A stretch of DNA of 64,000 nt, taken from positions 45,296 through 109,295 of the forward strand of contig CAINLR010000141.1 of the NCBI GenBank assembly GCA_903850425.1. The letters are read 5' to 3'. The stretch is from an uncultured Verrucomicrobia subdivision 3 bacterium (GTDB lineage Bacteria; Verrucomicrobiota; Verrucomicrobiia; Limisphaerales; UBA11358). The translations under genes were made by a program, and so were the position numbers. Every line of letters begins with the position of its first letter. Position 1 is the first letter of the stretch. Below, in pieces: positions 2,658 through 32,323 of the stretch. Below the pieces are notes generated by a model. The model did no database searches and was not told the origin of the DNA. It saw nothing but the letters and a program-made list of their open reading frames with translations.

Positions 2658-4355
2658 TTACGCGCCCAGCATAGCGGTCGTTGGTAAAAAATCCACCTCG
2701 GCGCCGGCGGCGAGGGAACCTTGATTTACCGGCACGCGCAACAGCGCATTGGCCGCCGCGAAACACGTCACGTCGCCGGAACTCGCCCACGCCAGCGGCT
2801 GCAACCGGATTTCACCGCCGGAAAACTCCAGGCGCGCCGGCCAGAGCGTTTCGCGCGGATTGGGTTTGTCGTCCAACTTTGCCGCCAGCGTGCCGCGCAA
2901 AAACCGTGGTGCGGCCTCGCCCACCAACCTGGCCAGCGCCGTCGCGACGGCGAAATGAAAACAGACGAAATGGGATAGCGGATTACCCGGCAAGCCAAAC
3001 GCCACGCACGCACCCTGGACGCCGAAGATGAGCGGCTTGCCGGGGCGAAGATTCACGTGGGAAAAAACAATCTCAAACCCCAGGTGCTCCAGCAACGGGC
3101 GGGTAAAATCTTTGTCGCCCACGCTGGCACCGCCGGAGATCAGCACGACATCGGCATTTGAGATTGGAGATTGGAGATTGGAGATTGCTGCCCGCGCCAA
3201 CTCGAAGTCTTCGGGCAAATGCCGCTGCACGATCTCGCCGGGCCAAGGCTGCAGCAGGCTGCGGATCAAAATGGAATTGCTGTCGCGGATTTGTCCCGGT
3301 TGCGGTGTTTGCCCGGGCGGGATAATTTCATCCCCGGTGGTGAGATGGACGACGCGCAAACGCGGACTCACGAGCGGTTGCGCGCAGCCCGCCGTTGCGA
3401 GCAGCGCCAGTTTTCCCGCGTCCAGACGTGCCCCCGCTGGGACCAACAACTGACCGGCCTTCACGTCCTCCCCGCGCCGGCGGACGTTGGGGACGAGCTC
3501 GTTCCGCACAATGTTGATGCGGTCGCCCTCGCGCTCCACATGCTCCTGCATCACCACGCGCAGGCCGCCGCACGGCAGCGGAGCACCGGTCGCCACCCGC
3601 ACGGCTTCGCCGGCTCGGAGTTGACGCGGCTGCCAGCCGGCGGCGTGAATCGTATCCACCACATGAAAATATTCGGATGCGTCATCGGCCAAAACCGCAA
3701 AGCCGTCACGGCTGGAACAATCAAACGGCGGTAAATCTTCCGGCGCGCTCACCGCCTCGCGCAGCACACGCTCAAACGCCTCGGCGAGCGGCGCGGGCAC
3801 GGCGGGCAAGGGCTGACAGCGTGATTGAATTTCCGCGATGGCTTCGTCCAGCGAGCGGAGCGCGGGACCGGAGCCCGCAGCGGTTGGCCATGAACGATCA
3901 CCGGTCTTGGCTGCAGACTTCTGAACTTCCAACGTGCCGCGGGTCACCGCCCCGCGCTCCGGCTCGAGACTCGGCCACGCCCGCCGCTTCCAAATCGGCA
4001 CATCCTGTTTGAGGCGGTCCATGAATTCGCCCAGCAAGGCAATGGCTTCCGCGCGATGTTTTGCAGCGACGCCAACATAGATCGCCGCCTCGCCCACGGG
4101 GACCACGCCGATGCGATGGAGGATGCGGGCCGCCTGACACGGGTGCCGCGCGGCAAGGGTCTCCAACAGCCGCCGGATTTCGCGCACGGCCATTTCGGGA
4201 TAAGCCTCGTATTCGAGCGCCGCAATTTGCGCGCCGTTTTCCGCCGCGCGAACCACGCCGCGAAATTCCAGCCACGCCCCCAGCGGGCCGAGGTGCGGCG
4301 GGAGCGAAATCTTTTCTGCGATGGCCGCGCCGGTCAGTTGGATTTCAATTTCCAT
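2658..4355 (-). CDS. Fusion protein: molybdopterin synthase catalytic subunit (MoaE-like N-terminus) plus molybdopterin molybdenumtransferase (MoeA)
   Basis: The first ~125 aa are MoaE-like (LEYEAYPEMA...HRIGVVPVGEAAIYVGVAAKHRAEA...DVPIWKRR). The remainder is MoeA-like (SLDEAIAEI...DCSSRDGFAV...ISGGASVGDKDF...GLPGNPLS...). It is a single uninterrupted 565-aa ORF. Confidence 0.85.
   Translation of the reverse strand: MEIEIQLTGAAIAEKISLPPHLGPLGAWLEFRGVVRAAENGAQIAALEYEAYPEMAVREIRRLLETLAARHPCQAARILHRIGVVPVGEAAIYVGVAAKHRAEAIALLGEFMDRLKQDVPIWKRRAWPSLEPERGAVTRGTLEVQKSAAKTGDRSWPTAAGSGPALRSLDEAIAEIQSRCQPLPAVPAPLAEAFERVLREAVSAPEDLPPFDCSSRDGFAVLADDASEYFHVVDTIHAAGWQPRQLRAGEAVRVATGAPLPCGGLRVVMQEHVEREGDRINIVRNELVPNVRRRGEDVKAGQLLVPAGARLDAGKLALLATAGCAQPLVSPRLRVVHLTTGDEIIPPGQTPQPGQIRDSNSILIRSLLQPWPGEIVQRHLPEDFELARAAISNLQSPISNADVVLISGGASVGDKDFTRPLLEHLGFEIVFSHVNLRPGKPLIFGVQGACVAFGLPGNPLSHFVCFHFAVATALARLVGEAAPRFLRGTLAAKLDDKPNPRETLWPARLEFSGGEIRLQPLAWASSGDVTCFAAANALLRVPVNQGSLAAGAEVDFLPTTAMLGA
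3160..3187. repeat. Tandem heptad array (GAGATTG x4) inside the moeA coding region
   Basis: Direct reading of gagattggagattggagattggagattg. It is translated in the gene frame as ..ISNLQSPISN.. immediately before the conserved DVVLISGGASVGDKD block. Confidence 0.85.
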
Positions 4356-7064: not shown

Positions 7065-7071
7065 ATTCTCG

Positions 7072-8013
7072 CTACCAGGTGCGCCCGGACCGGTCCTTGG
7101 GTTTGCCTGGTTCGCCCTGCCCCATCGGCAACTGCTTCCCATCGGGTTGAATTCCCATCATGATTTGTCCCGCTTGTTCGGGCGAAAGTTTCAAGCCCAT
7201 TTCCTGTCCGCCGCCGCCTTTGTCGGATTCCTCCTTGCCGCTCAATGATTCCGGCTTGGGCTTCTCGCCGCCATCATCATCTTCCTCCCCATCGTCACCG
7301 GGAGCGCCGGGCGGCATGTTCGGCGCGGGGATTTTTCCCTTCAACTGTTTCAACAATCCCTCCAGCTCGGCTTTTTTTCCATTCATGTTCGTCGCGGCCG
7401 ACTGCATCTCGCGCAGACTGTCCACCAGTTTGGCAATCGCCTGTGCCACGACCTCCGCATTTTTCACGGCATTGGTGTCGGCGGGATTCAGTTCGGCAGC
7501 ACTTTGAAAATCGCTGAGCGCGCGCCGCCATTTCGCCAGCGTTTTGCCATGTGCTTCCATGGCCTTTTTCACCGCCGCCGTCGCCGACTTCATTTCCTTG
7601 CGCACGCCACGACCAGCGACATACGCCTCGACCATCTGCTGGACATCGTTGCTCGCCAGCGCCTCAGCGGCCTTGTCCACCGCGCCCGCGCCCGCTTCCG
7701 TCGCAGCCCGGCTGCGTTTGGCGGTGCCTTCCGGGGATTTTTTCAACTCCTGTTTGCCTAGCGTGAAGCGCACATAGCCCAGATCGTAAAGCGCCTTGGG
7801 CGCGATCTTCTCCTCGCGCTGCTTGAGCGCGGTTTCCAACGCCGGTTCCGCCTCTTTCCAGTTTCCCGCGCGCATCTTTTCAATGCCAGCGTTGTAAAAA
7901 TCGCGGGCGGTTTCAGCTCGGGCGGCCGGGGAAGCAACGGGAACTTCGGCGTTGGTCACCACATTGGTAGCCGCCGAAACAGCGGGACAATTGAAGATGG
8001 AAAAAAGGAACAT
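7072..8013 (-). CDS. BatC-like TPR-domain protein (alternative start at 8121 would read through a palindromic repeat)
   Basis: MFLFSIFNCPAVSAA.. is a signal-like N-terminus. It is followed by a TPR-like segment (ARDFYNAGIEKMRAGNWKEAEPALETALK), coiled-coil and an acidic Gly-rich tail. The ATG at 8121 forms an ATGA overlap with the batB stop and is in the same frame. Confidence 0.6.
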   Translation of the reverse strand: MFLFSIFNCPAVSAATNVVTNAEVPVASPAARAETARDFYNAGIEKMRAGNWKEAEPALETALKQREEKIAPKALYDLGYVRFTLGKQELKKSPEGTAKRSRAATEAGAGAVDKAAEALASNDVQQMVEAYVAGRGVRKEMKSATAAVKKAMEAHGKTLAKWRRALSDFQSAAELNPADTNAVKNAEVVAQAIAKLVDSLREMQSAATNMNGKKAELEGLLKQLKGKIPAPNMPPGAPGDDGEEDDDGGEKPKPESLSGKEESDKGGGGQEMGLKLSPEQAGQIMMGIQPDGKQLPMGQGEPGKPKDRSGRTW

Positions 8014-8111
8014 CCAACATCCAACATCCAACACCCAACAACGAATGGCCGAGCGGCGTCCACCTGCGCCATGATTGGATATTCGATGTTGGATGTTCGA
8101 TGTTGGATGTT
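8009..8111. repeat. Palindromic GAT-heptad element A (arms 8009-8045 and 8076-8111)
   Basis: The left arm is aacatccaacatccaacatccaacacccaacaacgaa. The right arm is ttggatattcgatgttggatgttcgatgttggatgtt, the near reverse complement. The spacer is ~30 nt. Confidence 0.85.
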
Positions 8112-8117
8112 TCGCGT

Positions 8118-9146
8118 TCATGTCACTATTCCTTTTGCGCGTCGCGTGCCGATCAGCGATTCCACCACCAGCAGCAACAGCCCCGCCGCGACCGGCCAAT
8201 AGAATCGTTCCACGCCCCGACTATGCGTGCGCTGCAAACCCGCCGCGCGATCCAGAGTCTCCACTGCCGAGCGCACTTTCGCCAGTCCTTCGCCAAGTTG
8301 GCCCAGCGGAAAATAATTCCCACCGGTCGCCTGCGCGATGGCCGTCAGCGTTTTTTCATCCAACCGACTCACCACCGGCTCACCTTTGGCGTCGCGCACC
8401 AGTTCCATTTGGCCGACCGGATTCAACATTTGAATCTCGCTGCCCGCCGGCGAACCGAGGCCCACGGTGAAAACCACCACGCCGTTGGTGGCCAATGATT
8501 TCGCGGTTGCCACGCCACCTTTTTCCAGATCTTCGCCATCGGTCAGCAGCACGACGAGTTTGCGCCGGCTGTTTTTTTCCATCGCATGATTCGCCTCGCG
8601 GAGCGCCCGGCCGATGTCGGTGCCAGGGATGGGAATCGTTTTTTCATCCAAGGCTTGCAGCGCGGTTTCAAACGCATCGTAGTCCAACGTCAACGGGCAC
8701 TGCAAAAACGCGCTGCCCGCAAACCCGACCAAACCCACACGACCGCGGCCGTGCAAGCGGACAAAATCGTTGATGGCCAGCTTCGCACGCTGCAGCCGGT
8801 TGGGCCGGACATCCGTGGACAACATGCTGTAGGAACCATCGAGCACAAAGACCACATCCTCGCCAAGCCATTGGCTGCTGGACTTTAATTCGCCCCATTG
8901 CGGACGCGCCAGCGCCAGGCCGGCCAGCGCCAATGCGAGCAACAGCAAACCATTCTTGAATCGCCGCCGCGCCGGACTGTGCGACCTTGTGAGTTCTTCA
9001 ACGAAACGCGGCGAGGCGATTTGCGCCAGTTGCTGTTTGCGCTGCACCGCCGCGCGATGATGCAGCCACGCCAGCAACGCGGGCGCGACCACCGCGAGCA
9101 ACAGCCACTGCGGCGCTTCAAAATGCGGATGTGAAAAATCCATCAT
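8118..9146 (-). CDS. BatB-like von Willebrand factor A domain membrane protein
   Basis: 342 aa with two N-terminal TM helices. The VWA/MIDAS block is DVVFVLDGSYSMLSTDVRPNRLQRAK...VVLLTDGED, and there is a C-terminal TM helix. Confidence 0.85.
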   Translation of the reverse strand: MMDFSHPHFEAPQWLLLAVVAPALLAWLHHRAAVQRKQQLAQIASPRFVEELTRSHSPARRRFKNGLLLLALALAGLALARPQWGELKSSSQWLGEDVVFVLDGSYSMLSTDVRPNRLQRAKLAINDFVRLHGRGRVGLVGFAGSAFLQCPLTLDYDAFETALQALDEKTIPIPGTDIGRALREANHAMEKNSRRKLVVLLTDGEDLEKGGVATAKSLATNGVVVFTVGLGSPAGSEIQMLNPVGQMELVRDAKGEPVVSRLDEKTLTAIAQATGGNYFPLGQLGEGLAKVRSAVETLDRAAGLQRTHSRGVERFYWPVAAGLLLLVVESLIGTRRAKGIVT

Positions 9147-9206
9147 GGAGCTAATCGCAGTTCATGGAATTGGTCCGTGCTTGAGTGACGGTTTGATTGA
9201 GAGCGG

Positions 9207-9310
9207 TGGAAAAGCGGCGGAGGGCCGCCGCAGTCCAAGACGCTTCGCGCGGGTCGCGGCGTCTGAAAACGCCACGCGTCTTGGACTGCGCCAGCCCTCT
9301 GGCACTTTGT
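9207..9310. repeat. REP doublet (inverted pair of the gcagtccaagacgc-type unit)
   Basis: ggaaaagcggcggagggccgccgcagtccaagacgcttcgcgcg...cgcgtcttggactgcgccagccctctggc. The two halves are reverse complements. The same unit flanks the RAYT gene at 35.3-36.1 kb. Confidence 0.8.
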
Positions 9311-9380
9311 GCGAGATACGAACGCCCACGAAATATCCGCTCGAACCCAAGCACGCCCTGCAATGGCAAAGCCTGATTCC

Positions 9381-9415
9381 AAATCGTAAATCGTAAATCG
9401 CAAATCATAAATGCT
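9381..9415. repeat. Tandem heptad array (AAATCGT-type x5) in the batA-batB spacer
   Basis: Direct reading: aaatcgt aaatcgt aaatcgc aaatcat aaatgct. The reverse complement gives GATTTAC/GATTTGC heptads. Confidence 0.8.
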
Positions 9416-10456
9416 TCATGGCACGCGGCGATAACGTGTGTTGGCCAAAATCAACTCCAGCGCGAGCAAGCTCACCGCCGCCAGCAGCGGCCAGTGAAAC
9501 AGCGGCTCGTAAGTCGCATACCGCTTGATTTTGACCTCGGTTTTCTCCAGTTGATCAATCTGGTTGTAAATATTCAGCAACTCGCGCCGGTTAGTCGCGC
9601 GATAAAATTTCCCATGCGACAGGTCCGCCATTTTGCCGAGCACGGAATAATTCGCCGGCTGCAACAACAGCGTCGGAATGACATTGCCATTGGCATCGAG
9701 TTTTAGTTTTCCCGTGGCGGGATCGAACGCCGGCATGTAACACGGTTTCTCAATGCCGATGCCGATGGTGTAAATCTTCGACCCCACGGCGGCGGCCAGT
9801 TGCGCGGCCGGGAAGGGTTCGATCTCGCCTTTGTTGTTATCGCCATCGGTCAGCAAAATAATGACGCGGCTCTTGCTGTTCGGCACAGCCTTGAGGCGCT
9901 TGGCCGCAACCACAATCGCATCGCCGATGGCCGTGCCCAGATCGCCAATCGTGCCGACGTGCAGCCGGTGTAAGTTCTCGGCGAGCCAGTCGTGGTTCAG
10001 GGTCAGCGGGCTGGCGAGATAGGGCACGCCCGAGAAAACGACCAACCCAATGCGATCATTGGGCCTCTTGTGGATGAAATCGCCCAGCACCTCGTCGGCA
10101 ATGTCGAAGCGCGTCACTTTTTCGCTGGGCGCACCCATGTCTATCGCCGCCATGGACCACGACAGATCCAGCACGAGCATGATGTCAATGCCCGGTGTCT
10201 CGGTTTCAACGTGGTGGTTCGCCAGTCGTGGCCCGGCCAAAGTCACAATGCCCAGCGCGACCACGAGCAGCCGCAGAAAAATTAAAATCCGTCCCGGTGC
10301 CGCCTTGGCTTTGGCTCCCGCGGCGCGTGCAATCTCCGCGCTGGAAAACTTCAGCGCCGAGAACGTGCCAACCTTTCCGCGCAGCAACGCATAGATCGGC
10401 AATAGCGCGAGCAGGCTGAGCAACCACGGATATTCAAATTCAAAATTCTCCATCAT
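9416..10456 (-). CDS. BatA-like von Willebrand factor A domain membrane protein
   Basis: 346 aa with N-terminal TM helices. The VWA block is DIMLVLDLSWSMAAIDM...RVIILLTDGDNNKGE, and there is a C-terminal TM helix. It has a 4-nt overlap with the upstream gene. Confidence 0.85.
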   Translation of the reverse strand: MMENFEFEYPWLLSLLALLPIYALLRGKVGTFSALKFSSAEIARAAGAKAKAAPGRILIFLRLLVVALGIVTLAGPRLANHHVETETPGIDIMLVLDLSWSMAAIDMGAPSEKVTRFDIADEVLGDFIHKRPNDRIGLVVFSGVPYLASPLTLNHDWLAENLHRLHVGTIGDLGTAIGDAIVVAAKRLKAVPNSKSRVIILLTDGDNNKGEIEPFPAAQLAAAVGSKIYTIGIGIEKPCYMPAFDPATGKLKLDANGNVIPTLLLQPANYSVLGKMADLSHGKFYRATNRRELLNIYNQIDQLEKTEVKIKRYATYEPLFHWPLLAAVSLLALELILANTRYRRVP

Positions 10457-11148
10457 GCGCGCCGGCCTTGAGTTGAGGTTGCGGCCAAAGGCCGGAGTTG
10501 CGCCCGCCGCTGCTCGGCGCGCTCGATCAAATTCAACGCCTGATCTACGGCCTTGATTGGGACTGAAGCTGTCGCCGATGAAAACTTTTGCGCGTCACAG
10601 GCGCGCAAGAAATCAATCGCCGTCACGGCAAGCTCCGCGCCTATTTGGTCGCGGCCGGAAAGCAGCCGACCGAATTCGGCGGTGGTGAATTCGCCCGCCG
10701 GCAGTTGAAAGGCCGCGATGAAATAATGGCGGACGACCTGAGAGACGCGACTGAGAATCGCGCCGTCCTCCGGCTGCTGTCGCAGGCTTGCCAACGCCTG
10801 GCGAACTTGTTCTTCGGGAGAAATAATGTTTTTTGATTGGGAACGGCCGATCAGCCAGAGGACCAGCGCCATTACAACAATCGCAGCAAGCCCCACTAAA
10901 ATCATAGAACTTGCATGCTGCTCGACGAACGTGGGCGGCAACTCGCCATAAGGTGGCAATAACTTCAACGGGCCACTTTTATCGGCCGCGCCGGTCTGGC
11001 CATGAAGCGGTCGTGTGATAAGAAGAAGCAAAATCATCAAGGGAAACATCCCACAACGAACATCCCACAACGAACATCCACTCAAGCCAAGGCGCGTGGG
11101 CGTTGGCTGTTGGATGTTCGTTGTTGGATGTTGGATGTTTTTCATCAT
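10453..11148 (-). CDS. Small membrane protein in the DUF4381 position of bat operons (alternative start at 11049)
   Basis: It sits between the DUF58 and batA genes. It has one TM helix (MILVGLAAIVVMALVLWLIG) followed by a helical tail. The first 33 codons are read through palindromic element B. An internal MFPLMILLLL start lies at 11049. Confidence 0.55.
   Translation of the reverse strand: MMKNIQHPTTNIQQPTPTRLGLSGCSLWDVRCGMFPLMILLLLITRPLHGQTGAADKSGPLKLLPPYGELPPTFVEQHASSMILVGLAAIVVMALVLWLIGRSQSKNIISPEEQVRQALASLRQQPEDGAILSRVSQVVRHYFIAAFQLPAGEFTTAEFGRLLSGRDQIGAELAVTAIDFLRACDAQKFSSATASVPIKAVDQALNLIERAEQRRAQLRPLAATSTQGRRA
11045..11139. repeat. Palindromic GAT-heptad element B (arms 11045-11080 and 11108-11139)
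   Basis: The left arm is aacatcccacaacgaacatcccacaacgaacatcca and the right arm is tgttggatgttcgttgttggatgttggatgtt. It has the same architecture as element A. Confidence 0.85.
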
Positions 11149-24376: not shown

Positions 24377-24459
24377 AGACGTGCGGCGTGAACTGAAAGC
24401 TTCCCGGCGGTGAGCGCGCACTTTACAAATCACGTTTCCCGTTTCACGCTTCCCGCCAC

Positions 24460-26496
24460 ATGAACCGCATCCGGCTTCTTTCCGAACAGGTCGCCAACCA
24501 GATCGCCGCCGGCGAAGTGGTGGAGCGTCCGGCCAGCGTCGTCAAGGAACTCGTGGAAAACTCGCTCGATGCTGACGCTCGGAAAATCACCGTTGAAATC
24601 GGCGCGGGCGGGCGCAGCCTCATCCGCATCACGGACGATGGTTTTGGCATGAGCCGCGACGACGCTTTGCTTTGCCTCGAACGCCACGCCACCAGTAAAA
24701 TTCAGAAAGCTGAGGATCTCGCGTCCATCGCCACCATGGGTTTTCGGGGCGAAGCCGTGCCCAGCATTGCCAGCGTCAGCCGCTTCACGCTCACCACGCG
24801 CGAGCGCGACAACCCTTCCCCCGAAGGCACGCAAATCATCATCAACGGCGGCACCATTGCCGAGGTGAAGGCCGCCGGCAGCGCCCCCGGCACGAGCGTG
24901 GAAGTGCGCCAGTTGTTTTTCAATCTGCCCGCGCGCCGGAAATTTTTGCGCACGGAAGAAACCGAGGCTGCGCACATCCAGCACTATCTCACGCTGGCGG
25001 CGCTGGCGTTTCCCGAAGTCGCGTTCACTTTTGTCAAAGACGGCCGCAACGTCTGGCAATTGCCCGCCGTCAAATCCGGCGCGGCCACCTCCAGCCGCAT
25101 CGCGGCCTTGCGCGAACGCCTCCGCGCGTTGCTCGGGGATGAAAAACTGGTGCCCGTCAATTTTTCCGCCGCGCTCGACGACGACAATGCTGCCACGCCG
25201 GACGAGGCGGACATTTTTGAAACCGCCTCGCCGGAAAAGCCAGCGGCCGAGCAAATCTCAAATCTCAAATCTCACATCCGCGTCTGGGGACTGATCGGTT
25301 CGCCCGGCGTCTCGCGGGCAACCCGCGACGGCCAGTTCGTTTTCGTCAACCGCCGGCCCGTTGAAAATCGCGGCGTCAACTACGCGTTGATCGAGGGTTA
25401 TCATAATTCGCTGATGAAAGGCCGTTATCCGGTCTGCTGCCTGTTCCTCGAAATTGATCCCGCCGCCGTGGACGTGAACATCCACCCGGCCAAGCGCGAG
25501 GTGAAATTCCACCGCGAATTTGAAGTGCGGAAATTCGTGGCGCAGGCCGTGCATGAGGCGCTGCTCGCCTTTCATTCCGAGCCGGAAAAATCAAGCATCA
25601 AGCCCGGTGTCGAGACGCCGCACGCACATAGCCACCAACTGGAACATCCGCAAATCATTCCGCCCCAGCCCGCGCCCACACCGGCCGCGCCGCCAAATCC
25701 TCCGGCACCGTTCCAACCAGCGCCTGTCATTCCGGCTCAAATAGCCGCACCCGCCGCGCAAACACCTTTGAAAATGGGTTTCTCGCTGTCACCGGCGAAA
25801 GCCGAACCAGCAACGAACGCGGTGGACATGCCCTCGGCACCCGGCTATCCGCCCGCCGCAATTCCCCATCCAGCCGCCAGCCTCCCGCTGCCCGGAGCCA
25901 CGCCGTTGCTGAACGTCCCGCTCCGCCTCGTCGGCGTGGTCGGCAAACTCTATGTGCTGCTGGAATCAGATCGCGGCCTGGTGCTGCTCGACCAGCACGC
26001 GGCGCACGAGCGGATTTTGTTTGAGCAAATGTTGAACCGACTTGAAGAACAGGGGACGACGCCCTCGCAGAAATTGCTGCTGCCGGAGACCATCGAGCTG
26101 CCGCCGCGCGACGCCCAGTTCCTGCGCGAGCAGCTCACCGCGCTCACGCGGCTCGGCGTCGGCTTGAGCGAATTTGGCGAACGGACCTTTCTCCTTGATG
26201 CCCTGCCGCCGTTCGTCAAGGTGCCGGACGCGCGCCGGTTTGTGTTCGATCTGGTGGATGAACTGCGCGCCGCCGGGCGCGAAGTGAATCTCGCGCGGCT
26301 CGGCGAACACACCGTGGCCAAGACCGTCTGCCGCCATGCCGTGAAGGCCAACGACCCGCTGGGCGGCGCGGAACTGGAAAATCTCGTGGCAGATTTGCGC
26401 CGCTGCGCGATGCCTTACACCTGCCCGCACGGCCGCCCGACCTTGATTGAGATGAATTACCGTGAACTGGAGAAAAAGTTTGGCCGGGTGCAATAG
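24460..26496 (+). CDS. mutL: DNA mismatch repair protein MutL
   Basis: IRLLSEQVANQIAAGEVVERPASVVKELVENSLDA...DDGFGM; the C-terminal dimerisation domain contains LLDQHAAHERILFE and CPHGRPT. Confidence 0.92.
   Translation: MNRIRLLSEQVANQIAAGEVVERPASVVKELVENSLDADARKITVEIGAGGRSLIRITDDGFGMSRDDALLCLERHATSKIQKAEDLASIATMGFRGEAVPSIASVSRFTLTTRERDNPSPEGTQIIINGGTIAEVKAAGSAPGTSVEVRQLFFNLPARRKFLRTEETEAAHIQHYLTLAALAFPEVAFTFVKDGRNVWQLPAVKSGAATSSRIAALRERLRALLGDEKLVPVNFSAALDDDNAATPDEADIFETASPEKPAAEQISNLKSHIRVWGLIGSPGVSRATRDGQFVFVNRRPVENRGVNYALIEGYHNSLMKGRYPVCCLFLEIDPAAVDVNIHPAKREVKFHREFEVRKFVAQAVHEALLAFHSEPEKSSIKPGVETPHAHSHQLEHPQIIPPQPAPTPAAPPNPPAPFQPAPVIPAQIAAPAAQTPLKMGFSLSPAKAEPATNAVDMPSAPGYPPAAIPHPAASLPLPGATPLLNVPLRLVGVVGKLYVLLESDRGLVLLDQHAAHERILFEQMLNRLEEQGTTPSQKLLLPETIELPPRDAQFLREQLTALTRLGVGLSEFGERTFLLDALPPFVKVPDARRFVFDLVDELRAAGREVNLARLGEHTVAKTVCRHAVKANDPLGGAELENLVADLRRCAMPYTCPHGRPTLIEMNYRELEKKFGRVQ
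25252..25279. repeat. Tandem heptad array (CAAATCT x3 plus CACATCC) inside mutL
   Basis: Direct reading: caaatct caaatct caaatct cacatcc. It is translated as ..QISNLKSHI.. in a low-complexity stretch of mutL just upstream of the conserved GQFVFVNRRPVE block. The reverse complement gives GATGTGA GATTTGA GATTTGA GATTTG. Confidence 0.85.
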
Positions 26497-30936: not shown

Positions 30937-32241
30937 TCAAGCAGAAAGCAACTGCCGCAGCCACTCCAACCCCTGCGTCGCCGTCACCTCCTTGAAGGTG
31001 AGGCGATCCCAAGCATTCAAATATCTTCTCACCGCCACGCCGCCAGCCGAGGCCAGCGCGATGAAAACCGTCCCCACCGGTTTGTCCGCCGTGCCGCCGC
31101 CCGGCCCGGCGATCCCGGTGATCGCCACCGCCAGGTCCGCCCCGAATTGCTGCCGCGCGCCCGCTGCCATTTCCCGCGCAACCACTTCGCTCACCGCGCC
31201 ATGCGCGGCGAGCGATGCGGACCGAACCCCGAGAAATGTTGCTTTTGCCGCATTGCTGTAGCACACCACGCCGCCGAGAAAAACCGCGGATGCGCCCGGC
31301 ACATTCGTGAGCCGCTGCGCCATGTTTCCGCCGGTGCAGGATTCCGCCAACGCCAGTGTTTGCTTCTTTTGCGCCAGAAGTTTGACGACCACGGTTTCAA
31401 TTTCATCGTCGTCGAAACCAAAAATAGTTGCGCCGAGATTCTTCCGCGCCACGGCCTCGCCCGCACGGACGAGGTCCTCCGCCCCCAGCCCGCTGGCGGT
31501 CAGCCGCACGTCTACCGCGCCGGGCCGCGCACAATAGCCGACTTCCAAGCCGGCCTTCACCAGCGGTTGTAAATCGCTTTCCACCTTCTCCTGCACGCTC
31601 GATTCGCCGACGCCGGTGGTCCGCAAGGTGCGGCAGACAAAAATCTCCCTGACAAATTCACGCTTCAGCCAAGGCGCAATCGAATCATCAAACATCGGCC
31701 GCAGTTCGCGGGGCGGGCCGGGCAGCATCACGAGCCATTTTGGGGAAGCAGATGGCAGATGGGAGATGGTAGGTGGGGAGGTTTCAGCCCCAACTCCCAG
31801 CTTCCAACTTCCATTTCCTATTTTCATCGCCAGTCCCGGCGCGGTTCCATTTTGATTCAGGAAAACCAGCGCGCCTTCGGGCACAAACGTTTCCACACTG
31901 GTTTTCGCCGGGCGCGGACGATTCCGCCTCGCAAAAAAGTTTTCGATATGCGCGAGCACCGCCTGGTTCTCAATCAGCTTTTTGCCGAGCAGTTCGGCGA
32001 TGAGTTCGCGCGTGATGTCGTCCGAGGTCGGACCGAGACCGCCGGTGGTGATGACCAGATCCGCGCGGCTCAAGGCTTCGCGCACGGCCTGCTGGATTTC
32101 GTGGCCGGTGTCGCCAATGGCCACCTGCCGCGTGACGACGTGGCCGAGATCGGCGAGGCGGCGGCAAAGCCATTGCTGATGCGTGTTCAGGACGCGGCCG
32201 AGCATCAGTTCGCTGCCGGTGTTGACGAGTTCGACGTTCAT
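30937..32241 (-). CDS. cinA: CinA-family protein (MoCF-like N-domain plus nicotinamide-nucleotide amidase-like C-domain)
   Basis: Start set at MNVELVNTGSELMLGRVLNTHQ. Conserved blocks are ITTGGLGPTSDDITRE and ESCTGG. The 13 extra codons in the track ORF are unsupported. The gene contains an in-frame palindromic repeat at 31745-31826. Confidence 0.85.
   Translation of the reverse strand: MNVELVNTGSELMLGRVLNTHQQWLCRRLADLGHVVTRQVAIGDTGHEIQQAVREALSRADLVITTGGLGPTSDDITRELIAELLGKKLIENQAVLAHIENFFARRNRPRPAKTSVETFVPEGALVFLNQNGTAPGLAMKIGNGSWKLGVGAETSPPTISHLPSASPKWLVMLPGPPRELRPMFDDSIAPWLKREFVREIFVCRTLRTTGVGESSVQEKVESDLQPLVKAGLEVGYCARPGAVDVRLTASGLGAEDLVRAGEAVARKNLGATIFGFDDDEIETVVVKLLAQKKQTLALAESCTGGNMAQRLTNVPGASAVFLGGVVCYSNAAKATFLGVRSASLAAHGAVSEVVAREMAAGARQQFGADLAVAITGIAGPGGGTADKPVGTVFIALASAGGVAVRRYLNAWDRLTFKEVTATQGLEWLRQLLSA
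31745..31826. repeat. Imperfect palindromic GAT-heptad element C inside the cinA coding region
   Basis: The left arm is gcagatg gcagatg ggagatg gtaggtg ggg. The right arm is ccccaactcccagcttccaacttccatttcc. About 5 of 7 positions per heptad are complementary by hand alignment. It is translated as ..KIGNGSWKLGVGAETSPPTISHLPSASPKW.. Confidence 0.7.
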
Positions 32242-32254
32242 AAAACTCCCAGAA

Positions 32255-32323
32255 GAAACCACGAAATACACAAAACACACGAAAGAAAATTTCTTTTTCG
32301 TGTCGTTCGCGGGTTTCGTGGAT
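32255..32323. repeat. A/C-rich palindromic element in the cinA upstream region
   Basis: gaaaccacgaaatacacaaaacacacgaaagaaaa|tttctttttcgtgtcgttcgcgggtttcgtgg. The inner stem pairs acacgaaagaaa with tttctttttcgtgt, and the outer pair is ccacgaaa/tttcgtgg. Confidence 0.7.

Follow-up and report, generated by a model that had tools for sequence, protein, structure and literature searches.

Stable palindromes within coding sequence are considered rare, and the textbook example among bacteria is restricted to Rickettsia. The Rickettsia palindromic elements (RPEs), or 'protein-coding palindromes' (Ogata et al., 2000, 2002, as summarized in PMC10969869 and PMC6649704), lie in frame within Rickettsia ORFs (PMC10969869), and template switching can form and homogenize palindromes (PMC6649704). 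Heptanucleotide repeats are known in bacteria as the cyanobacterial STRRs, the GGGAATC repeats of Xanthomonas and the TAACTGA repeats of Beggiatoaceae, and the Xanthomonas unit occurs as 70–75 convergent, stem-loop-capable pairs per genome (PMC4692102, PMC4679880). For REPs, which are short palindromes dispersed at operon junctions, roles in mRNA stabilization and transcription termination have been hypothesised (PMC3733652). In the literature collection searched, a query for heptameric repeats together with Verrucomicrobia found no paper. Here we describe a palindrome built of heptad repeats at the start of a batC-like gene in a verrucomicrobial window, i.e. the whole 64-kb stretch of DNA that was analysed, and compare it with orthologous junctions and with these systems.

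Anatomy and gene context of the palindrome

The features at the batB/batC junction are the following.

8009–8111, minus strand: heptad-repeat palindrome of 103 nt, from inverted repeat, period-7 arrays and RNA fold
8111–8074, minus strand: 5' arm of the palindrome on the mRNA, AACATCC/AACATCG units
8073–8047, minus strand: loop of the palindrome, 27 nt
8046–8009, minus strand: 3' arm of the palindrome on the mRNA, GGATGTT units
8119–8121, minus strand: batC-like ATG start overlapping the batB stop (ATGA), read directly and conserved in orthologues
8013–8015, minus strand: internal in-frame ATG in the last GGATGTT heptad, a candidate alternative start with a 313-aa product
7072–8121, minus strand: batC-like gene for a TPR protein of 349 aa (counted from the ATGA codon), from ORF, position and homologues
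8118–9146, minus strand: batB (VWA and BatA N-terminal domain), from ORF and Pfam; its stop TGA (8120–8118) overlaps the batC start

The gene order DUF58–BatA–BatB–TPR protein–BatD is that of a bat (Bacteroides aerotolerance-type) operon, with Pfam matches to DUF58, BatA and VWA (twice) and BatD. Because the TPR_16/TPR_1 matches in the batC-like product fall below the Pfam cutoff, the label 'BatC' rests on position, between BatB and BatD, and on the 515 homologues found. The initial annotation had placed an ATG at 8121 overlapping the batB stop, with a frame running through the palindrome into batC, and a second in-frame ATG (8015–8013) in the terminal GGATGTT; both can be read directly. The frame from the first ATG (8121–8119) reads MNAKHPTSNIQHRISNHGAGGRRSAIRCWVLDVGCWMFLFSIF... 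and is continuous with the downstream TPR protein, and the palindrome codes for about residues 4–37 (approximately 33–36 codons) of the leader, N-terminal to its hydrophobic core (FLFSIFNCPAVSA|ATN). An apparent 'bridging ORF' of 85 codons over the batA/batB spacer of the window was rejected, as the orthologous spacers (10 loci) carry stops in all frames.

The same annotation described a hairpin-forming element of about 100 nt with tandem-heptad arms, and this description stands. The inverted-repeat arms (8009–8046 and 8074–8111) are 38 nt each, 84% complementary and separated by a gap of 27 nt, and both contain a period-7 array (AACATCC x4.6 at 8009–8040 and TTGGATG x5.3 at 8075–8111) with a sub-period of 14 nt (TTGGATGTTCGATG). 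Both arms hold at least three head-to-tail 7-nt units, as in the STRR-like class, and the two arrays are close, convergent, made of the same unit and stem-loop-capable, as in the Xanthomonas type of pairing, whereas the G-rich, quadruplex-capable unit and intergenic site of the Xanthomonas repeats are not found here, AACATCC/GGATGTT being without G-tracts and inside the batC ORF. The suggested fold of the minus-strand RNA of 7990–8130 gave a minimum free energy of −58.5 kcal/mol against −37.7 ± 3.5 kcal/mol for 200 dinucleotide shuffles (z = −6.0), none of which was as stable as the native RNA, and the heptad 19-mer has 12 matches in the 64-kb window and 0 in 100 shuffles.

Searches for known RNA families did not identify the palindrome. 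With Rfam 15 at gathering score, the whole window yields two tRNAs only and no match at the palindrome; at E ≤ 1, there are just matches to eukaryotic miRNA-precursor models, so far below threshold that the palindrome is a generic hairpin to Rfam. An intrinsic (Rho-independent) terminator was considered and rejected: despite a T-run 3' of the stem, the terminator scan reports none at the site, because the loop is 27 nt and the criterion is 3–8 nt. The GTAG or CGTC end tetranucleotide that marks REP/BIME palindromes of 20–40 bp (PMC3733652) is absent, the ends being GGRAACATCC...GGATGTTCC and the arms 38 nt long.

Orthologous junctions and the start of batC

The relatives are Verrucomicrobiota MAGs. 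Eighty orthologous batC loci were collected by searching with just the mature portion of the protein, i.e. blind to the junction. Their junctions are of two sorts: compact ones, without a hairpin (z from −1.5 to +1.7), and expanded ones, which carry a palindrome and have z from −2 to −14 in most cases, with decayed palindromes in L142 (z = −0.7) and L136 (z = −0.8). Since hairpin-free compact orthologues exist, the hairpin is unnecessary for the operon to work. The expanded junctions include the unrelated heptad families GAAACGG (L159), TTTTTCA (L156) and CGAAGTC (L195), and in L150 and L195 inserts are nested within the loop. The base of the stem lies 2–10 nt from the start codon (in L138, the stem includes the ATG itself), and a T-run follows 3' of the right arm in most copies. 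When compact and expanded junctions were compared by eye, no clear target-site duplication of the MITE type was seen; the flanks are divergent.

The ATGA frame is open and in frame through the palindrome in all 17 expanded batB/batC junctions, which have eight different lengths (117, 180, 183, 186, 201, 204, 291 and 465 nt), and the compact orthologues L135, L145, L157 and L199 share the ATGA start, in frame. The orthologues thus indicate that the ATGA codon is the conserved, real start of batC and that the palindrome lies just downstream of it, inside the gene. The view of the site as an ATGA translational-coupling point is borne out, and the read-through is no ORF-caller artefact. The statement that the element lies between batB and the signal peptide and exactly fills the junction presumed a start at the internal ATG and has to be given up; with batC starting at the ATGA codon, there is no junction gap to fill. 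That the element 'remains translatable' holds across orthologues, but is uninformative for the window copy taken alone, because all three of its frames are open and 73% of heptads drawn from the same DNA and tandemised lack stops on both strands; the sole informative frame feature of that copy is its spacing of 108 nt (3n). The idea that stop-free heptads had been chosen was likewise dropped, 24 of the 38 distinct units being stop-free on both strands against the 73% expected from the same DNA.

The internal ATG is present in 9 of 12 related copies and missing in L137, L138, L141 and L159, and several copies, L137, L138 and L159 among them, have no downstream ATG at all. In-frame TTG codons occur in the right arm of copies without the internal ATG, and because of these codons a downstream start at a given locus is still formally allowed. 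In some contigs (P0121), batC is called from the internal ATG.

A second junction and the wider repeat class

The palindrome is not particular to the batB/batC junction: two more copies lie in the window, at the DUF58/DUF4381-like junction and in cinA, and arrays of the same heptad occur at more than 120 genome loci.

11045–11139, minus strand: second palindrome, same heptad family, at the beginning (first ~33 codons) of the DUF4381-like gene, from arrays and RNA fold (z = −8.0)
10453–11148, minus strand: DUF4381-like gene, host of the second palindrome; its ATG (11148–11146) overlaps the DUF58 stop (TAATG)
31741–31815, minus strand: third, decayed heptad palindrome (GCAGATG... / ...CCAACTT), from period-7 arrays
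30937–32280, minus strand: CinA-like gene, host of the third palindrome as an in-frame insert of ~25 residues

At the DUF58/DUF4381-like junction, all 22 of 22 loci have a start codon (ATG or GTG) at the stop of the upstream gene, from which an open frame runs through inserts of 0 to ~330 nt into the downstream gene, and the 13 palindrome-bearing loci among them are all in frame. The 29 elements (1567 codons) contain 0 stops in the frame of the start codon and 31 and 17 in the other two. The position in frame within an ORF that characterizes Rickettsia-type protein-coding palindromes is therefore found at 17/17 and 22/22 junctions, with translation itself predicted from the frames. In the CinA-like protein, residues 143–167 are without counterpart in the solved CinA chains 4uux and 6mr3.

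Among short periods, enrichment in the 64-kb window is limited to period 7 (5 strong runs, against 0–2 for periods 5, 6, 8 and 9), and ~480 kb of bat loci contain 155 period-7 arrays. AACATCC x3 occurs at the >120 genome loci, which span many phyla, several of them outside the verrucomicrobial lineage. Many of these loci share the architecture GGRAACATCC..CCAATG-loop-CATTGG..GGATGTTCC, and 39 of 120 genome-scan loci have a partner arm. Placed against the longest ORFs, the 120 arrays cluster qualitatively near ORF ends, a placement that is noisy in this GC-rich, unannotated DNA. The palindrome is a single member of a class of repeats that this verrucomicrobial lineage carries in abundance.

At least seven independent acquisitions are seen at the same two junction sites. 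Such repeated acquisition hints at targeting or benefit.

The two junctions together bear on the version of the initial annotation, in which a non-coding, REP-like element separates batB from a batC started at the internal ATG and the upstream open frame is incidental. That version would accommodate the GGA at a Shine–Dalgarno-like distance 5' of the internal ATG, the gene calls from that ATG (P0121) and the three open frames of the window copy, by which openness alone is uninformative. However, it is already disfavoured, and we consider it very improbable: the start frame is kept at every junction of both kinds over many independent lengths, its stop count of 0 stands against 48 in the other two frames, some copies are without the internal ATG, and compact orthologues such as L135 and L145 have the same ATGA start.

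The encoded peptide

Between the window and an 88% relative, the element shows 2 synonymous to 11 non-synonymous changes, compared with 85 to 32 elsewhere in the gene (Fisher p = 9e-5); over ten pairs, codon changes in the element are 28 synonymous to 115 non-synonymous, compared with ~587 to 611 in the comparison set. These ratios indicate that the palindrome-encoded peptide is unconstrained. At both junctions, the peptides encoded at a given site by unrelated heptads are likewise unrelated, and the consensus of ~100–150 bp with a conserved peptide that defines an RPE is not found, units and loops being variable and the peptide unconstrained. The first arm codes for a hydrophilic, net-positive segment and the second for a hydrophobic one in 28 of 29 copies, a polarity that matches the N-terminal region of a leader peptide followed by its hydrophobic core.

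This leader-like polarity is what could speak for a function of the repeat peptide itself (HPTSNIQ... / ...LDVGCWM), e.g. as a cytoplasmic tail or targeting signal. We find such a function hardly credible, since the element class as a whole shows this orientation of the arms (18 vs 2), non-synonymous changes dominate, the peptides at the site are unrelated wherever the heptads are, and the loop can be inverted.

DNA-level dynamics and the hairpin

The inversion of the loop is seen on comparing L137 with L139: against the reverse complement of the L139 loop, the core of the L137 loop agrees at 20 of 23 positions (direct match, 12; best of 5000 shuffles, 19), which points firmly to inversion in situ; heptad variants are, moreover, mirrored between the two arms. 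Slippage is seen as well. L207 equals the window over 1694 nt save for one missing GGATGTT, a deletion that cuts the ATGA frame after 52 codons and leaves the internal ATG as the only ATG in frame with BatC, so that an out-of-frame state can exist in the population. It is the sole length variant among the window-type contigs (L201–L203, L206 and L207), and every other palindrome-bearing junction examined keeps the frame; between P0011 and P0012, the difference is exactly three heptads. The initial proposal of two protein isoforms gains some support from the internal ATG, which is found in most related copies and is the sole in-frame ATG in L207.

The palindrome shares with phase-variable tracts a unit not divisible by 3 in a 5' coding region, and slipped-strand mispairing of this leader repeat could in principle toggle BatC and, via coupling, BatD and BatE. 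The opa CTCTT repeats in leader-peptide coding sequence are a precedent (PMC3745409), and the truncating L207 deletion and the three-heptad difference of P0011/P0012 are the kind of variation that such a contingency switch would produce. Against it, there are just three perfect heptad copies in arrays interrupted by variants, which would lower the slippage rate; save for L207, all copies examined are in the ON frame (17 at batB/batC, 13 at the second junction and contigs L201–L203 and L206); the internal ATG of L207 could still yield the full-length mature protein, so that its state is perhaps not OFF; and the organism, to judge from where the samples were taken, is apparently free-living in the environment, a setting in which one would less expect a classical contingency locus. 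We therefore regard the switch as quite improbable.

Selection on the hairpin was addressed by several comparisons. Purifying selection on the nucleotides of the arms was supported by one pair (0.16 against 0.37 at 4-fold sites) and mixed over ten, with three close pairs in which the element diverges at the neutral rate or faster, and the claim was withdrawn. Between the window and L204, arm divergence is 0.13 against 0.37 at 4-fold sites. Hairpins stay strong between orthologues with saturated 4-fold sites (about 0.5). On the mRNA strand, G.U-type exceed A.C-type mismatches by 78 to 48 overall and stand at 27 to 26 at batB/batC, counts in which variant copies are non-independent. The persistence of the hairpin and the G.U excess would fit selection on RNA structure, i.e. 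a function beyond tolerance.

On this evidence, the mRNA structure could be a selected cis-regulatory hairpin working at the coupling site, with translation through the palindrome a positional constraint only; possible jobs include batB-dependent initiation of batC, transcription attenuation (through the U-run 3') and stability of the up- or downstream mRNA segment. The stem base close to the start codon (with the ATG inside the stem in L138), the very high stability (z from −6 to −14), the persistence of structure at saturated orthologues, the overall G.U excess, the low arm divergence between window and L204, the repeated gain of unrelated palindromes at the same two coupling sites and the T-run after the right arm all favour such a role. 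We still hold it to be unlikely, if by no means negligible, in view of the many compact junctions without a hairpin, the decayed copies in L142 and L136, the lack of mismatch asymmetry at batB/batC itself, the neutral or faster divergence in the three close pairs, the occurrence of the class mid-gene in CinA and in many other contexts, and the silence of the terminator scan at a 27-nt loop.

Proposed explanation and significance

The reading that we favour, and consider probable on comparative sequence grounds, is that of a translated heptad palindrome whose upkeep depends on slippage and templating of the DNA and whose presence is tolerated in a leader peptide that is probably cleaved off. 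Its directly supported parts are the anatomy, the family membership, the in-frame conservation, the unconstrained peptide, the loop inversion and the slippage variant. As the palindrome follows the first codons (MNAK) and precedes the leader's hydrophobic core, ribosomes would translate through it, adding ~33 residues of indifferent sequence that are probably removed with the leader. Selection would then demand just a length of 3n and the absence of stops in the insert. Replication slippage in steps of 7 nt, together with templating or recombination between the arms, would make and renew the palindrome and would explain the mirrored heptad variants and the inverted loop. A hairpin of −58 kcal/mol ~10 nt after the start codon would be expected to hinder initiation by free ribosomes at batC, leaving initiation to ribosomes just off batB, and gain or loss of one heptad would break the long frame, as seen once in nature. 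The palindrome could plausibly serve to gate coupling or to switch the frame, and the gating of Bat stoichiometry or mRNA stability by the hairpin, as initially proposed, is a candidate function.

These elements could also be joined into a single, improbable reading, in which self-renewing coding palindromes seed preferentially in leader codons at overlapping junctions, where A-rich N-region codons followed by T-rich core codons would be natural quasi-palindromes, and are retained both as a ribosome-hand-over hairpin and as a slippage frame switch. If true, this dual use would provide free-living Verrucomicrobiota with heritable, reversible control of the stoichiometry or presence of envelope complexes, e.g. 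Bat.

The palindrome represents a mechanistically different kind of coding palindrome, made of 7-nt simple repeats that keep the reading frame at the same pair of gene starts in a single operon, and this in-frame placement holds across orthologues with saturated synonymous sites. Ongoing DNA dynamics are directly visible in the loop inversion and the one-heptad slippage allele. For annotation, N-terminal extensions such as NIQHPTSNIQ.../...WMLDVGCW and their starts should, in these phyla, not be trimmed away as artefacts; for evolution, leader peptides may be a safe harbour for repeats inside genes. The palindrome also offers a clean test case of a very stable hairpin 10 nt past a start codon versus translational coupling.

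Comparison with known systems

Like the REP/BIME elements and MITEs of proteobacteria (PMC3733652, PMC10969869), the palindromes described here are short, dispersed, located at operon junctions and able to form mRNA hairpins. Unlike them, they lack a GTAG/CGTC head and a unique consensus, neither a target-site duplication nor an associated transposase is in evidence, their arms are tandem repeats, and they are coding rather than extragenic. The coding palindromes of nematomorph mitochondria (PMC6649704) are similarly long inverted repeats in protein genes, for which maintenance by template switching has been proposed; however, both of their arms code for conserved functional regions under amino-acid selection. 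The opa CTCTT tracts of Neisseria (PMC3745409) share with the heptads a non-3n repeat at the leader-coding 5' end, where copy change shifts the frame, as in the one variant seen here (L207). Whereas opa tracts are long, perfect and one-armed and switch at ~1e-3 per generation, those described here form palindromes of short tracts with interruptions, the frame is kept in nearly all sampled alleles, and the internal ATG may rescue the protein.

With the other bacterial heptanucleotide repeats, the arrays have in common tandem 7-nt units that are over-represented relative to other periods, dispersed through the genome and often placed at gene boundaries, and with those of Xanthomonas also the inverted pairing of arrays, which is frequent there. 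The Xanthomonas and Nostoc units are G-rich and quadruplex-forming, in contrast to the unit here, and the arrays here differ from both in being paired within coding sequence, in frame, at one site across deep orthologues. The closest likeness in coding terms is to the RPEs, which, in the summaries cited above, are dispersed palindromes in frame within ORFs, read as an extra peptide, tolerated in permissive parts of proteins and able to decay. According to the same summaries, RPEs form families of ~100–150 bp, each with a conserved consensus and peptide, and occur in Rickettsia only. The palindromes here, by contrast, have tandem-heptad arms with a unit that varies by copy, locus-specific loops and an unconstrained peptide, and their preferred site is the leader peptide just after an overlapping start codon.

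Operon context and anatomy of the batB/batC palindrome

The palindrome lies in a bat operon, which carries a second copy of the same family; a third, decayed copy and further period-7 arrays of differing units occur in the window, in which seven is the sole enriched short period.

Bat operon members, heptad palindromes and other period-7 arrays in the window
12203-11148 (-), DUF58 gene, operon member
11148-10453 (-), DUF4381-like gene, operon member
11045-11139 (-), second palindrome (AACATCC/GGATGTT family), first ~33 codons of the DUF4381-like gene
10456-9416 (-), BatA, operon member
9146-8118 (-), BatB, operon member
8121-7072 (-), TPR protein in the BatC position (batC-like gene), operon member
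7142-5229 (-), BatD, operon member
31748-31813 (-), decayed heptad hairpin (also a period-7 array) within the CinA-like gene 30937-32280
3156, 9381, 24433, 25252, other period-7 arrays

The batB/batC element is a heptanucleotide-repeat palindrome. Its hairpin, initially annotated at 8009-8121, is present, with arms of 38 nt apiece (8009-8046 and 8074-8111) that are 84% complementary, lie 27 nt apart and each consist of a period-7 array (AACATCC/TTGGATG) with a 14-nt sub-period. Folded in mRNA sense (minus-strand RNA, 7990-8130), it reaches -58.5 kcal/mol against -37.7 ± 3.5 for shuffled sequences (z = -6.0; 0 of 200 equally stable), and no Rfam family matched it. Both ATGs of the initial annotation can be read directly: that at 8121-8119 overlaps the batB stop TGA (8120-8118) and continues in frame across the palindrome into the TPR protein, and the element supplies a further one in the same frame at 8015-8013. 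Three successive GGATGTT units at 8009-8030 place one ATG in each reading frame, each with GGA five bases upstream, so that the array could offer a downstream gene a start in any frame. The annotated translatability of the element gains little weight from the window copy alone, because all three of its frames are free of stops and 73% of heptads sampled from this DNA are stop-free on both strands; its support comes from orthologues.

Start codon of batC and in-frame conservation

Among 515 homologues found with the 349-aa product, many share one kind of N-terminus (MKGKH(P/S)T(S/F)NIQH...IGCW.L(D/N)V(G/E)CWMF) despite identities of only 53-66%, and others have an ordinary leader (MKxFQKxFKATLI...). 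Eighty metagenome loci were then retrieved with the mature protein part only, as a guard against gene-caller bias, and the batB stop and conserved mature region were located in each. Two kinds of junction were distinguished. Those of the compact kind are without a hairpin (z -1.5 to +1.7), and their batC ATG overlaps the batB stop or lies 7 nt past it; loci such as L135 and L145 show the ATGA without an insert (MKTFQNIF...). In expanded junctions the palindrome immediately follows codons 2-4, the distance from ATG to mature region being 117, 180, 183, 186, 201, 204, 291 or 465 nt, and the frame from ATGA is kept without stops in 17 of 17. This holds for unrelated heptads (GAAACGG in L159, TTTTTCA in L156, CGAAGTC in L195) and where an additional unrelated palindrome is nested in the loop (L150, 291 nt; L195, 465 nt). 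Several expanded junctions lack any downstream ATG (L137, L138, L159).

The second palindrome stands directly behind a start codon overlapping the DUF58 stop (TAATG) and also translates in frame (MMKNIQHPTTNIQQPTPTRLGLSGCSLWDVRCGMFPLMILLLL...). At this junction all 22 loci examined have an ATG or GTG at the upstream stop from which the gene's frame runs without stops through inserts of 0 to ~330 nt; 13 of the 22 contain palindromes, which belong to three or more unrelated kinds, and DUF4381-like orthologues carry AACATTC-type, CGAAATC-type or no palindrome at the same site, the frame always being kept. One locus (L153) has a duplication of the entire palindrome-plus-leader unit there (~550 nt), with the start-codon frame open. 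When the count is limited to the palindromes themselves (29 distinct elements, 1567 codons in each frame), the start-codon frame has 0 stops and the two alternative frames have 31 and 17. Given this count and the in-frame conservation at both junctions, batC most probably starts at ATGA, and the palindrome, initially annotated as filling a gap between batB and BatC, is then part of the coding sequence. The initial annotation thus holds as an observation, and its interpretation is supported in part: the element is most probably translated, not intergenic. Judged from sequence, it occupies the N-terminal region of the leader, with the hydrophobic core and then a conserved ...A.G|(S/A)TN motif following it; the form of the leader suggests that it is cleaved.

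The CinA-like copy points the same way. Residues 143-167 of this protein map to 31741-31815 (-), an in-frame insertion of ~25 residues; they have no counterpart in the solved CinA structures 4uux and 6mr3, where chain residues 143-145 are contiguous. Since this copy is in frame outside any operon junction, heptad palindromes behave as protein-coding palindromes more generally.

Constraint and DNA-level dynamics

The encoded peptide is unconstrained. Between the window and L204, an 88%-identical relative with an element of equal length, synonymous and non-synonymous codon changes number 2:11 in the element and 85:32 elsewhere in the gene (Fisher p = 9e-5), and ten orthologue pairs give 28:115 against ~587:611. 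Nucleotide-level constraint is not consistent: element divergence is 0.16 against 0.37 at 4-fold sites for the window and L204, and equals or exceeds the 4-fold-site rate in three close pairs. Most copies nevertheless form strong hairpins (z -4 to -14) across lineages with saturated 4-fold sites, so that pairing must be renewed by something; in L142 and L136 the hairpin has decayed.

Selection on the sense RNA predicts a mismatch asymmetry. That asymmetry is weak (G.U to A.C mismatches 78:48 overall, 27:26 at the batB/batC junction), and DNA-level processes have left stronger and direct signs. Heptad variants are mirrored from arm to arm (AACATCC/GGATGTT versus AACATTC/GAATGTT; AACAACC/GGTTGTT in genome-scan locus L011). 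At the batB/batC junction the loop cores form two groups, L132/L137/L138/L141 and L139/L144/L136, that are reverse complements of each other: the L137 core matches the reverse complement of L139 at 20 of 23 positions, against 12 directly and 19 in the best of 5000 shuffles. At least one inversion in situ has therefore taken place at the palindrome centre, and the frame is open either way round. Slippage is seen in L207 (ENA ERZ27313574 k141_344281), a contig from another sample that over 1694 nt differs from the window only in lacking one GGATGTT of the right arm (positions ~610-711); its ATGA frame ends after 52 codons, and the internal ATG alone is in frame with BatC. Template switching is an established route for palindrome formation and homogenisation (PMC6649704), and polymerase slippage has been put forward to explain why heptanucleotide repeats are over-represented (Mrazek 2007, cited in PMC4679880 and PMC4692102). 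The batC palindrome is conserved in position and free in sequence.

Heptad repeats elsewhere in the window and in other genomes

The exact 21-mer AACATCC x3 occurs at more than 120 loci of a species-representative genome collection, the majority in Verrucomicrobiota (Chthoniobacter, Pedosphaera, Limisphaerales), and others in Acidobacteriota, Gemmatimonadota, Bacteroidota, Chloroflexota and cyanobacteria. About one-third form a full hairpin whose ends recur from locus to locus (GGRAACATCC...CCAATG-loop-CATTGG...GGATGTTCC) and whose loops are specific to each; others are one-armed arrays, joined different heptads or arrays within long ORFs. The batB/batC palindrome is one of a family, not a bespoke device. 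Matches in distant phyla include single ones titled Pseudomonas rossensis and Bifidobacteriaceae MAGs; transfer, convergence or mis-binning may account for the sharing. In genome-scan locus L006, two genes are separated by an AACATCC palindrome (~7070-7220), which was read by eye as a mini-ORF of ~46 codons whose start and stop each overlap the neighbouring genes as ATGA.

Within the window, an ATTGGAG x4.6 array (3156-3187) lies inside a MoaE-MoeA fusion ORF (2658-4355, -), where it is translated as ...AISNLQSPISNADVV... immediately ahead of the conserved GGxS motif region. A CGTTTCC array (24433-24455) stops 5 nt short of the ATG (24460) of a MutL-like ORF, which contains a CAAATCT x3.9 array in frame (25252-25278, reading QISNLKSHI). 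The batA/batB spacer (9147-9415) has a one-armed ACGATTT array (9381-9412) beginning 4 nt past the batA stop, a unit also found in this spacer in L126, L137, L138, L159 and L161, and a separate palindromic repeat of another kind (~9219-9300). An 85-codon ORF (9151-9408) crosses the window spacer; in orthologous spacers every frame is interrupted by stops.

How the element may work

The palindrome may persist because nearly any insert of 3n nucleotides would be tolerated in the N-terminal region of the leader and, if the leader is cleaved, mature BatC would be unaltered. Arm orientation is strongly biased: in 28 of 29 in-frame copies, an A-rich arm encoding hydrophilic, net-positive residues precedes a T-rich arm encoding hydrophobic ones, which is the polarity of a leader peptide. 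This orientation is no proof of adaptation to the batC site, as it is general to the class (18 genome-scan hairpins versus 2 reversed).

A regulatory role is possible. Because the stem starts 2-10 nt past the start codon, it should impede independent initiation, and from the way translational coupling works one may reasonably infer that batC would be left to ribosomes terminating at batB; compact orthologues manage without a hairpin. A slip of one heptad switches the long frame off, a state seen once (L207) that could conceivably serve as a switch.

Comparison with known systems

Heptamer repeats are a known but little-studied bacterial feature. Our literature search for such repeats in Verrucomicrobia, incomplete in coverage, found no paper, and an earlier description is possible. 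Xanthomonas genomes each hold 70-75 convergent GGGAATC pairs, stem-loop capable and mainly intergenic (PMC4692102); the batC element resembles these as a paired heptamer repeat and differs in being, on its translated reading, coding rather than intergenic. In Beggiatoaceae, TAACTGA arrays immediately precede start codons (PMC4679880). Rickettsia is known to carry palindromic repeats in frame (Ogata 2000, 2002, via PMC10969869); stable structures are otherwise described as rare within coding sequence (PMC6649704). Neisseria opa genes have frame-shifting repeats in their leader-coding regions (PMC3745409), where the batC repeat also lies. The batC element joins these features, namely a paired, coding heptamer repeat, a leader peptide and an overlapping start, in a combination kept across deep orthologues.
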